64,000 bases of DNA. Origin: Streptosporangiaceae bacterium. GTDB lineage: Bacteria; Actinomycetota; Actinomycetes; Streptosporangiales; Streptosporangiaceae. Below are positions 21,767 to 25,349 of the stretch, in pieces. The stretch is from assembly GCA_965277615.1 (NCBI GenBank), contig CBDIDG010000006.1, forward strand, positions 1,578,332-1,642,331. The letters are read 5' to 3'. A model generated the notes under the pieces. It did not search any database. It saw nothing but the letters and a program-made list of their open reading frames with translations, and had not been told where the DNA came from. Position 1 is the stretch's first letter. Each line of letters starts with the position of its first letter. Made by a program: the position numbers and the translations under genes.

Positions 21767-21881
21767 CTGGGCATTGTCTGCTCCGTCGATGACGCTGATG
21801 TTAGCGGCGCGTATGCGGCAGGTGAGCTTTACCCTCGCGTTAGCCCTGGCCAGGTCGTCCCTACGCGCCCGCCGGGTAGGG

Positions 21882-22858
21882 ATGGGCCATGATGGGCCGG
21901 TGGACTTCGAGCCGTACCGGGGTGAGCTGGTGGCGTACTGCTACCGGATGCTGGGCTCGGTCCACGACGCCGAGGACCTGGCCCAGGAGACGATGCTGCG
22001 GGCCTGGCAGGCCCGCGACCGCTATGACCCGAGCCGGGCCTCGGTCCGCACCTGGCTGTACCGGATCGCGACCAACGCCTGCCTGTCCGCGCTGACGGGA
22101 CGGGCGCGGCGGCCGCTGCCGTCCGGGCTGGGCGCACCGAGCCGCGATCCCGCAGCACCGCTGACTCCGTCGTTCGACATCCCCTGGCTGCAGCCGTTCC
22201 CGGACGCGCGGTTCGACCCAGGGGTACGGACCGGGCTGCGGCTGGCGCTGGTGGCCGCGATGCAGGTGCTGCCGCCCCGGCAGCGTGCGGTGCTGGTGCT
22301 GCGGGAGGTGCTGGAGTTCAGCGCGGCCGAGGTCGCCACCCAGCTCGGAACCACGGTCCCGGCGGTCAACAGCGCCCTGCAGCGGGCCCGGGCCACGCTG
22401 GCCCAAACCAGGCTGGCACAGACCGGTGGCCTGGAGGAGGTGGCCGAACCGGGCGATCCCGAGGCAAGAGCGGTGATCGAGCGCTACGTCCAGGCGTTCG
22501 AGGCGGCCGATGTCCCGGGGCTGGTCCGGCTGCTGGCCGACGAGGCGGTGCTGGAGATGCCGCCGGTGCCGCTGTGGTACCGGGGCCGCGGCGATTACGG
22601 CCGGTTCATGGACCGCGTGTTCAGCCTGCGCGGGCCGGGCCGGGCTGGGCCCTGCGGCCCCTCACCGCCAACGGCGGGCCCGCGCTGGCCGCGTACGCGC
22701 CGGAACCCGGGGGCGGGCACCGGCGGCACACCCTGCAGGTCTTCACCGTGGCCGGCGGACTGGTCACCAGCAACGTGGTGTTCGCTGACCCAGAGGTCTT
22801 CGAGCTGTTCCAGCTGCCGGAACAGATTTTTCCTGGAGAGCTGCGCCCAGTGCGATGA
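21882..22858 (+). pseudogene. ECF41/SigG-like sigma factor with SnoaL-like C-terminal extension, frameshifted
   Basis: [23 protein letters not shown] and [31 protein letters not shown] are in frame 1. The expected C-terminus [17 protein letters not shown]...[10 protein letters not shown] is in the -1 frame (ORF 22574..22858). Confidence 0.8.
22632..22651. repeat. tandem pentanucleotide GGGCC GGGCC GGGCT GGGCC at the frameshift point
   Basis: Read directly. Deleting one unit restores ...[17 protein letters not shown]... Confidence 0.9.
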
Positions 22859-22914
22859 GTCCGGGCGGTGCCGCCAGTACGTACCGGCGAGCATCGACCG
22901 AAGGGAACACCATC

Positions 22915-23469
22915 GTGAGCGTCATCGTCATCGAGTTCATCACCCTGGACGGCATCGTGTCCGACCCGGACGGGTCCGGGGGCACCCCGGCCGGCGGCTG
23001 GGCCTTCCGGCACGGCCCCGAGGCGGTCGCCGGGGACAAGTTCCGCCTCGGGGCCGTGCTGGACGACGGGGTCATGCTGCTGGGCCGCAGGACCTGGGAG
23101 CTGTTCGCCAAGATCTGGCCCGGGCGCGACACCCCGTTCGCCCAGCGCATGAACGCCGTGCCCAAGCTGGTCGTCTCCCGCACCCTGACCGACGCCTCGG
23201 ACTGGGCCAACTCCCAGGTCGCGGCCGACCCCCTCGACGTAGTGCAGCGCGAGTCGCGCGACGTGATCATCACCGGCAGCCTGAGCGTCGTCCACCCGCT
23301 GATCGCCGCGGGCCTGATCGACGAGTACCGGCTGCTGACCTTCCCCACCATCCTCGGCACCGGGGAACGGCTGTTCCCGGCGGGCGGTCCGCCCGCACAC
23401 CTGGAGCTGCTGGCGGCCGACCAGTCCGGCGCCGCCGTCCTCGCGCGATACGGGACGGCAGCAGCGTGA
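22915..23469 (+). CDS. dihydrofolate reductase-family (RibD C-terminal domain) protein
   Basis: [12 protein letters not shown]...[15 protein letters not shown]...[13 protein letters not shown]...[25 protein letters not shown] at 22915. Confidence 0.8.
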
Positions 23470-23472
23470 TGG

Positions 23473-25077
23473 TTAGTCAGCCTGGGCCTTCTGGGCGGCC
23501 AGGTGGTCCCAGTCGTGCAGGAAGATCTGCTGGAAGTACTGGGCGGCGTCCGGATGCTCGATGATCACGCCGGCGTCGCGGTTGTACAAGGTGCCGTCGG
23601 TGGACCAGTTCTGGCTGCTGACCAGTACCCGCTGGCCGTCGGCGATGATGCCTTTGTTGTGCACGTTGTTCTGGATCTTGACGTTGTGCACGACGTCGAG
23701 GCCGAGGGCCTGCAGCTGCTCCAGGTAGCCGGCCTTCTCGAACTCGCTCATGATGATCTTCACGTCGACGCCGGCCGCCTGCCGGGCGATGACGGCCTGC
23801 ACCAGGTCGACGAAACCCTGGGAGGTCGCATCGGTCTGCCGGGGCAGCTCGATGTACTGGAACTGCAGGTAGAGCGTCTGGGTGGCCGAGGCGATCAGGT
23901 CCTTGACCGCGGTGGTGTAGACGCCGGGGTCCGGGGTCAGCACCGGGGTGATCCGCATCGTGCCGGTCACCGTCCGGGGCGGGAAGAACGTGGCGAACGC
24001 GGGGGTCTCGGTGCTGCCGAGCGAGGGCGGCGTCAGCGGCGGGCCGGCCTGCTCGGCCGGCCCGTTGTGCGCGGCGGCCACGGCCAGGTCGTGCTTGATG
24101 TAGTCCTCGAACACCCCGGCGAGATGGGCCTGATCGATGATCACGTGCCAGTCCCGGTCGCGGTGCCGGGCCTCGCTGGCGTCAGCGGCGCTGGCCGGGC
24201 TGGCCGCCGGGTCGATGTCGGGCTGGTTGGAGTTGTTCCAGTTGCCGCTGGACAGCCAGGTCGCGGCGCGGTCCCGCACCGCGACCTTGATGTGGTAGGC
24301 GCTCGGGTAGATCCAGGCCGTAGCGTCCTTGTCGGTCCGGGTCAGCGCCCAGGCCTGGGTGAACTCAGACGTCAGGGCCTGGTGAAGCGTGGCCACCGTG
24401 TCCGGGTCGGTCTGGTCCGCGGTCGGGTTCTTGGCCGGGTGGTCAAGCACCAGGCTGAACGGCTTGCCGTTCAGGTCGCCCTGCACGGCGCTCAGGACGT
24501 GGGCCGAAGTGAAGTCATACAGGCCCACCGTGAACGTCTCCGTGGTCGCGGCCAGGAAGTCCTTGAGCGCGGGCCAGCCCGAGTCCGGGCTGGCGCACAG
24601 GTGGACAGTGGCCTCCCCCTCCACCGGGTTCAGCGTCACGCCAGCCGGGCCGCTGTAGTCCAGCTGCGGTTTGGAGATGGCCGCCGCCAGCGCGGCGTGG
24701 GCCGACGCCAGCGCGGCCGGGCGCAGGCCGGGATGCGGGCCGCCCAGCGTCTGCTCGTCCGCGAAGTGCGGTACCGAGCCCTGATCCGGGGCCAGCCGGT
24801 ACTCCTGGGCGTATCCTTGCGGGTCCTCCAGTTCCTTGCGCTTTTCCGGCGACGCCTGCCGGACGTCGGTCGGCACCCCGGCCACCTCGGCCGGCACCTG
24901 GTCGGCCGCCGGCAGCTGCGATTTCTTCTGCGCCACGGTGACGACGATGGCGGGAGCCGAGGTCAGCCAGTCGTTGGTCACCTTGTAGCCCGGCCGCACG
25001 GACAGGACGCCCGGCTTGCTGAGCTCGGCCAGATGCTGGCTGATGACGTTGTTCAGTCCGGACAGGTCCTCAGGCAT
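23473..25077 (-). CDS. phospholipase D-superfamily protein with two HKD motifs and an unassigned ~150-aa N-terminal region
   Basis: [24 protein letters not shown] and [27 protein letters not shown] at 25077 preceded by GGGGAGGG (longer ORF runs to 25104). Confidence 0.8.
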
Positions 25078-25160
25078 GGCACCCTCCCCTAGTCGCGCTC
25101 TCATCCAACCGGAGACGCGGCGCCCCGTCCTGATACTCCGGTTAGCCGGGCAGTGAACAG

Positions 25161-25349
25161 TCAGCCCGGCGTGTCGCGGCGGAGGCCCTCGGCGGCGTAT
25201 TCCGCGAGCAGGTCGCTGACTGACAACCCGCGGTGGACGGCCTGGGCGGCCAGGGCCTCGGCCAGGTCGATGGGGAAGACAACGGTGCGGTGCACGCAGT
25301 CGTCACCCTCCCAGGCTTCGCCGGCCGGTTCATCCGCGGACTCAGACAT
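25161..25349 (-). CDS. ribbon-helix-helix (CopG/antitoxin-like) small protein
   Basis: 62 aa. RTVVFPIDLAEALAAQAVHRGLSVSDLLAEYAAEGL. GGAAAGGAG RBS. The start overlaps the upstream stop as ATGTCTGA. Confidence 0.7.
   Translation of the reverse strand: MSESADEPAGEAWEGDDCVHRTVVFPIDLAEALAAQAVHRGLSVSDLLAEYAAEGLRRDTPG

Follow-up and report, generated by a model that had tools for sequence, protein, structure and literature searches.

A supernumerary CGGGC unit breaks the frame of an ECF56 (SigG-type) sigma factor gene in a Streptosporangiaceae genome: probably ordinary slippage or an assembly error rather than an evolved switch

The genome of an uncultured Streptosporangiaceae bacterium (8.38 Mb, 6 contigs) contains, within a 64,000-nt stretch (the window), a sigma factor gene (21882–22858) whose reading frame is broken inside a run of GC-rich pentamers. 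The question raised by this locus is whether the break is a fixed pseudogene, an indel of the assembly, or a slipped-strand on/off switch, these being the three options offered in the original prediction. Starting from ATG 21882, frame 0 specifies 253 residues up to ...FSLRGPG (22640), after which it continues as RAGPCGPS... and, as predicted, stays open across the downstream gene until the TGA at 23562–23564. The family C-terminus is instead found, again as originally described, in the -1 frame; there it reads from TGG 22646 to TGA 22856–22858 and is recognized by the NF006089 profile. Re-reading of the sequence (22630–22659 is gcGGGCCGGGCCGGGCTGGGCCctgcggcc) returned the same four GGGCC/GGGCT pentamers, and Tandem Repeats Finder describes the tract with period 5, 4.2 copies and a score of 35. 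The extra CGGGC is a clean copy of the neighbouring unit, and its position is arbitrary anywhere in 22631–22645. Translation and the profile matches on both sides of the break bear out the coordinates and the break point that had been given: the N-terminal part covers positions 27–273 of the 343 positions of NF006089 and the C-terminal part takes up at 278–340, so that the two are consecutive pieces of one gene. When joined minus one unit they yield the anticipated protein of 323 aa, which aligns over 96–100% of its length to hundreds of full-length homologs. The pentamer-linked frameshift is thus confirmed as an observation (Table 1).

Table 1. Features of the sigma factor locus and sites of the candidate regulon. 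Positions are those of the window, except where a contig of the genome (C5, C6) precedes the number.
Feature	Position	Strand	Basis
Possible sigma-gene promoter, CGATGACGC-N14-CGTA	21787..21813	+	sequence reading; 2 mismatches in -35 octamer
N-terminal 253 codons of sigma gene (sigma-2, linker, sigma-4, MPPV, first half of SnoaL_2)	21882..22640	+	frame 0, Pfam and TIGR02960
Imperfect 15-nt in-frame tandem duplication, GCTGGCCCAAACCAG / GCTGGCACAGACCGG	22397..22426	+	alignment; sigma-4 to SnoaL_2 linker
Pentamer tract CGGGC CGGGC CGGGC TGGGC (C)	22631..22651	+	Tandem Repeats Finder and ortholog alignments
Four pentamers GGGCC GGGCC GGGCT GGGCC	22632..22651	+	direct sequence reading
Supernumerary CGGGC unit	22641..22645	+	5-nt gap at this site in orthologs
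Out-of-frame tail, 308 codons, 23% Arg, 14% Pro, 13% Gly	22641..23564	+	frame-0 reading across downstream gene to TGA 23562–23564
C-terminal 70 codons and stop (beta-sheet half of SnoaL_2), -1 frame	22646..22858	+	NF006089 positions 278–340 of 343, E = 2.6e-11
ECF56-type promoter-like block, CGATGAGTC, 14 nt, AGTACGTACC	22853..22885	+	match to published ECF56 motif
RibD_C (dihydrofolate-reductase-like) gene	22915..23469	+	Pfam RibD_C, E = 2.2e-17
Ten further sites CGATGAGTY-N14-[CG]GTC	C5:632307, C5:1365889, C5:714393, C6:52288, C6:1086799, C6:2313604, C6:2490778, C6:2367801, C6:920619, C6:50435		genome-wide motif scan

The general architecture of the gene product, with a fused SnoaL_2/NTF2-like regulatory domain, resembles that of ECF41 sigma factors (M. 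tuberculosis SigJ, B. licheniformis Ecf41); the order of sigma-2, sigma-4 and a C-terminal SnoaL_2 with an MPP motif following sigma-4 is that of ECF56 (M. tuberculosis SigG/Rv0182c, S. venezuelae SVEN_4562, S. tsukubaensis SigG1). Pfam places Sigma70_r2 at residues 9–76, Sigma70_r4_2 at 121–173 and SnoaL_2 at 199–248 (profile positions 1–48 of 102) of frame 0; sigma-2, sigma-4 and the SnoaL_2 extension are therefore all present, though divided over two frames. The N-terminal part alone scores 295.2 bits against TIGR02960 (cut-off 264.75) and 336.4 bits against NF006089/PRK08241 (cut-off 240), whereas it reaches 98.8 bits with the ECF41 model TIGR02957 (SigJ), far below the cut-off of 323.25, and 95.5 bits with the SigJ model NF007214 (cut-off 271). 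The closest solved structure is 7qh5 (E = 1.4e-41), whereas SigJ itself (5xe7) is matched only at E = 5e-13, and neither of the ECF41 signature motifs, DGGGK after sigma-4 and the distal NPDKL, occurs in the two translated parts. The ECF56 motif after sigma-4 is MPP(F/Y/L) (Thompson et al. preprint, bioRxiv 10.1101/2020.01.30.927608); here it differs in being MPPV, a form that is invariant among 35 close homologs. By these profile and motif matches the gene is an ECF56 sigma factor (SigG type: TIGR02960, PRK08241) and not an ECF41, and the label 'ECF41/SigG-like' under which it was first reported mixes two groups. It had also been stated that the SnoaL-like extension stands in for an anti-sigma factor, which is established knowledge in the case of ECF41. 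In ECF56 one preprint finds the extension to be inhibitory (bioRxiv 10.1101/2020.01.30.927608), and one member, SigG1, possesses an anti-sigma factor, RsfG, besides (PMC7730460). No RsfG-like anti-sigma gene adjoins the sigma gene here. The copy studied here also departs from known ECF56 members in being split by a 5-nt insertion.

Directly downstream, ahead of the dihydrofolate-reductase-like gene, lies a putative -35 element of the CGATGAGT type. The published ECF56 motif is CGATGAGTT-N14-GGTC (bioRxiv 10.1101/2020.01.30.927608), and CGATGAGTC (22853–22861) agrees with its -35 in 8 of 9 bases, the stop codon TGA of the sigma gene being situated inside this element. The arrangement CGATGAGTC-N14-AGTA at 22853 precedes RibD_C and deviates from the published motif at the -10, which is AGTAC here as against GGTC/CGTC in known ECF56 promoters. 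The block is retained in every ortholog whose aligned sequence reaches that far. Throughout the genome, CGATGAGTY-N14-[CGA]GT[CA] is encountered at 11 sites, against about 1.4 expected by our own calculation from base composition, and each of the 11 is followed by a high-GC3 ORF on the same strand within 30–142 nt. These ORFs encode three RibD_C proteins (two of them thus standing elsewhere in the genome behind the same ECF56-type motif), two glyoxalases, and alpha/beta hydrolase, YCII, PNPOx, GyrI-like, DUF899 and BNR/sortilin-like proteins. As the motif exceeds its expected number and stands ahead of genes of the regulon type, including the glyoxalase, hydrolase and RibD_C genes known from the published ECF56 regulon, the 11 sites suggest a shared regulon and are put forward as a candidate ECF56 regulon, close to the published regulon classes (bioRxiv 10.1101/2020.01.30.927608); the RibD_C gene at 22915–23469 is likely a member. 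A second block (21787–21813), conserved among close orthologs, lies upstream of the sigma gene, between it and a divergent TrkA-domain channel gene, and may serve the sigma gene itself as an ECF56-like promoter.

The surroundings of the promoter-like block vary among relatives. A 14-nt unit, CCAGTG(A/C)(A/G)ATGAGT, that spans the -35-like ATGAGT and the stop region of the sigma gene is present once in the window (22845–22861), twice in the metagenome contig L028 (about 300–330) and three times in contig L027 (about 1060–1110); this natural copy-number polymorphism changes the C-terminal tail, which is not conserved, and multiplies the promoter-like element. Beyond the RibD_C gene, about 1.7 kb (23459–25172) holds a minus-strand gene (23473–25104) for a 543-aa PLD-like protein (PLDc_2, E = 1.8e-22). 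The relatives G014, G011, L016, L028 and L029 lack this segment here, their sequence skipping from about 23458 to 25173, and in G001 a homolog lies on the opposite side of the sigma gene; by this comparison it looks like a single-gene insertion. Elsewhere, an identical 66-nt string (gtccacGATGAGTACCTGGAACGGCAGTCCGCAGCGTGAATTAACCACAAATCCGCTGTCCGGAAA) recurs in 11 places on three contigs (e.g. C4:522110, C5:9271, C6:2141178) and is probably part of a multicopy insertion sequence.

Orthologs of the sigma gene were gathered from the genomes of four relatives (G011, G014, G001, G024), from two contigs reached via homologous proteins (L016, L017) and from a pattern scan of metagenome and genome-collection contigs (L027, L028, L029), and in each of these sequences the alignment opens a 5-nt gap at the site. 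All ten orthologs (78–95% nucleotide identity to the sigma gene) lack exactly these 5 nt and have an intact frame, their tract being CGGGC CGGGC TGGGC (two perfect units and TGGGC). The pattern scan tolerated 0–20 bases between the flanks, equivalent to 2–6 units, and returned the 3-unit length exclusively; copy numbers other than 3 (e.g. 2 or 5) were not seen in the ten orthologs. This genome is therefore alone in having the extra unit. The nearest relative, L028, has about 94% identity over 948 nt, is intact, and has in common with this genome an unusual NGG variant downstream of the break. The ortholog comparison revealed no private substitutions past the break in this genome, which implies that the event is very recent or not real, and the C-terminal part shows no stops, high GC3 and no sign of relaxed selection. 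Exact-protein look-ups of the frameshift product and of the neighbouring RibD_C protein (V or M first) brought up no independent assembly of the same strain, and the protein search gave no match above 93% identity. The 15-nt duplication further upstream (Table 1) recurs in one ortholog, the MAG contig L016 (GCA_036490275.1), and in none of the others.

The orthologs also account for the origin of the tract. In these, CGC GGG CCG GGC TGG GCC encodes R-G-P-G-W-A, and among 35 homologs G246 and W249 of the GPGW motif are invariant and G248 nearly so. The ten paralogs in the genome have other residues at the GPGW position and are without the repeat. Thus, the tract is solely a consequence of the GC-rich codons in which this orthogroup spells its GPGW motif.

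The frame is lost 24 residues C-terminal to the MPP motif. An AlphaFold model of an intact ortholog (P0004) is of low confidence (mean pLDDT 50.6), and the order of its secondary structures alone was used: three helices up to residue 243 precede the break and four strands (250–294) follow it. Together with the Pfam coordinates this order indicates that sigma-2, sigma-4 and the helical half of the NTF2-like SnoaL_2 persist in the predicted product and that the sheet is lost, with a predicted 308-residue Arg/Pro/Gly-rich nonsense tail in its place. Truncation of three ECF56 sigma factors right past MPP(F/Y) raised reporter activity; for SVEN_4562 the truncated form gave 2.4-fold versus 1.1-fold activity, and its constitutive expression in S. 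venezuelae led to a bald phenotype (bioRxiv 10.1101/2020.01.30.927608). In ECF41, as Wecke 2012 and Goutam 2017 are relayed in PMC7730460 and PMC8999054, partial C-terminal truncation is hyperactivating and full deletion inactivating. By analogy with such truncations, which raise activity, the product may be a deregulated sigma factor; given that it has half a domain followed by a long nonsense tail, it is judged more likely to misfold and to be non-functional. Eleven genes in the genome score above the TIGR02960 cut-off, ten of them full length and only the copy at 21882 truncated, such that its loss is likely buffered by the ten full-length paralogs. A separately expressed C-terminal fragment (ORF 22574–22858) was considered and set aside as improbable, since it would begin with 24 out-of-frame codons and go on to half an NTF2-like domain, which can hardly be expected to fold.

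Two further readings are regarded as unlikely. A slipped-strand contingency locus would toggle pentamer copy number reversibly and at a high rate, so that the sigma factor would alternate between full length under regulation and a state that is off or deregulated. The locus does resemble those of Neisseria, Haemophilus and Campylobacter, in which an in-gene tandem repeat gains a unit and the frame shifts: the frameshift lies exactly within a tandem repeat, where gaining or losing a single unit repairs or disrupts the frame, and, given that engineered truncation just past MPP raises ECF56 activity (bioRxiv 10.1101/2020.01.30.927608), the alternative state could in principle show a phenotype. 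Those loci, however, have long tracts beyond what composition predicts, strain-variable copy numbers and many representatives per genome, whereas the tract of the sigma gene has 3 units, belongs to a length class that is not enriched, is uniform across ten orthologs and has no companion locus. Repeat-mediated phase variation is recognized by repeat numbers beyond the expectation from genome composition together with high, reversible switching (PMC11868660). Here the tract has 3 perfect units, and the genome holds 65 pentamer tracts with exactly 3 perfect units and 2 with 4 (the genome maximum) where third-order Markov simulations predict 60–72 three-unit tracts; the tract is no longer than base composition predicts. 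Copy-number polymorphism among relatives, as expected of a phase-variable locus, is likewise lacking, with 3 units in 10 of 10 orthologs, and the repeat is a by-product of the GPGW motif that the paralogs do without. Of 27 pentamer tracts within strong coding signal, only that of the sigma gene breaks a frame; a GC3 phase switch at two other tracts (C3:137267 and C6:3346307) goes with a gene end whose stop codon lies next to the tract, and does not reflect a frameshift. We thus regard a rapidly toggling locus as very improbable, and attach as little credence to the milder version in which the 3/4-unit CGGGC tract would act as a low-rate contingency switch between full-length, ligand-regulated ECF56 and a form without the inhibitory half of SnoaL_2. 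The switch that had been proposed failed on tract length, enrichment, GPGW origin and orthologs alike, and the ortholog alignment suggested with it returned intact 3-unit genes in 10 of 10 cases, with no variation in its favour; the fixed pseudogene and the assembly indel named beside it both stand. An even slighter chance is given to a real frameshift that is bypassed by -1 ribosomal frameshifting or other recoding, by which full-length sigma factor would still be made. The C-terminal part is indeed intact in the -1 frame, but 22629–22660 is devoid of X XXY YYZ slippery heptamers, folding of the 121 nt downstream does not surpass that of shuffled sequence (z = 0.59), and the orthologs are unshifted, so that none needs recoding. 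Programmed -1 frameshifting was rejected for the want of a slippery heptamer, a stimulatory structure and conservation of the shift.

Most probably the break goes back to a single slippage mutation of an ordinary kind or to an error of the assembly rather than to a switch that evolved; between the first two we lean, at little better than even confidence, towards a real replication-slippage mutation. Tandem gain of one repeat unit is the classic product of replication slippage, and the other natural tandem duplications in this gene lineage (the 15-nt and 14-nt units) were counted in favour of it. An assembly or consensus artefact, in which the organism would have an intact 3-unit gene and a long-read consensus would have added a spurious unit, possibly where strains differ, is held to be a substantial possibility that falls short of even. 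The perfectly preserved downstream frame would look identical after a consensus error, every relative is intact, including the contig about 94% identical over 948 nt, and the look-ups and protein search described above yielded no same-strain assembly with which to compare. Two sister genomes, G014 and G001, come from Microflora Danica, a project whose MAGs were assembled from Nanopore reads only with one round of Medaka polishing (PMC12313526), and this 6-contig genome is probably a long-read MAG of the same kind. Two GC3-phase scans for frameshifts had been too noisy (genome-wide about 30 sites per Mb; of two other sites flagged in the window, one was a normal gene junction), and a first comparative filter had missed the sigma frameshift. 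The census of errors therefore uses a test for open frames in the two genomes: 403 kb of G014 was aligned to this genome, net non-3n indel clusters were scored, and it was asked which genome keeps an open frame and high GC3 over 70 codons on each side. Frame-breaking clusters number 51 in G014 versus 6 in this genome, which makes this assembly about ten times cleaner, not error-free. Three of the 6 are isolated, namely two 1-nt deletions, which are suspicious and speak for an artefact, and the CGGGC of the sigma gene. The clusters of G014 (MFD04463.bin.1.148; C8:552650–1052649; loci L018–L022 and L032–L051) are mostly 1-nt, some with several per gene, a pattern typical of uncorrected long-read consensus errors. 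The sigma frameshift is like the residual indels of Nanopore-only MAGs in being isolated, with a preserved downstream frame, intact relatives and a probable long-read origin; it is unlike them in being a clean 5-nt unit duplication in an assembly with few other breaks, whereas the isolated frame-breaking events in G014, like the other such events of the two genomes together, are almost all 1–2 nt. Single-nucleotide indels are the usual class of long-read error, and duplication of a whole unit is not a usual error type. That no other of the 27 coding pentamer tracts breaks its frame speaks against a systematic repeat artefact.

On balance, we infer that the insertion is present in the organism's own DNA. 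A recent, lineage-private event would have duplicated one CGGGC in tandem, (CGGGC)2 to (CGGGC)3, and thereby shifted the frame of one of eleven ECF56 (SigG-type) sigma genes; the allele would most likely be a young pseudogene, its loss buffered by ten intact paralogs that apparently share the promoter motif.

In itself the finding matters little, as it concerns a single broken copy in a highly redundant regulator family and an ordinary kind of mutation or error. For annotation, the gene is to be labelled an ECF56 (SigG-type) pseudogene/frameshift and not an ECF41, and the frame-0 ORF to 23564 is not to be called a protein. The locus clearly exemplifies an ECF56 sigma gene with its stop codon inside the -35 of a conserved, putative ECF56-type promoter of the RibD_C gene next to it, and the genome supplies an 11-site candidate regulon matching the one published for Streptomyces. 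Were the switch true, it would bring cell-to-cell heterogeneity into a conserved stress regulon (glyoxalase, RibD_C and hydrolase genes) of a soil actinomycete. If the 4-unit allele is real, nature would have produced an equivalent of the C-terminal truncations that have been engineered to activate ECF56 sigma factors.
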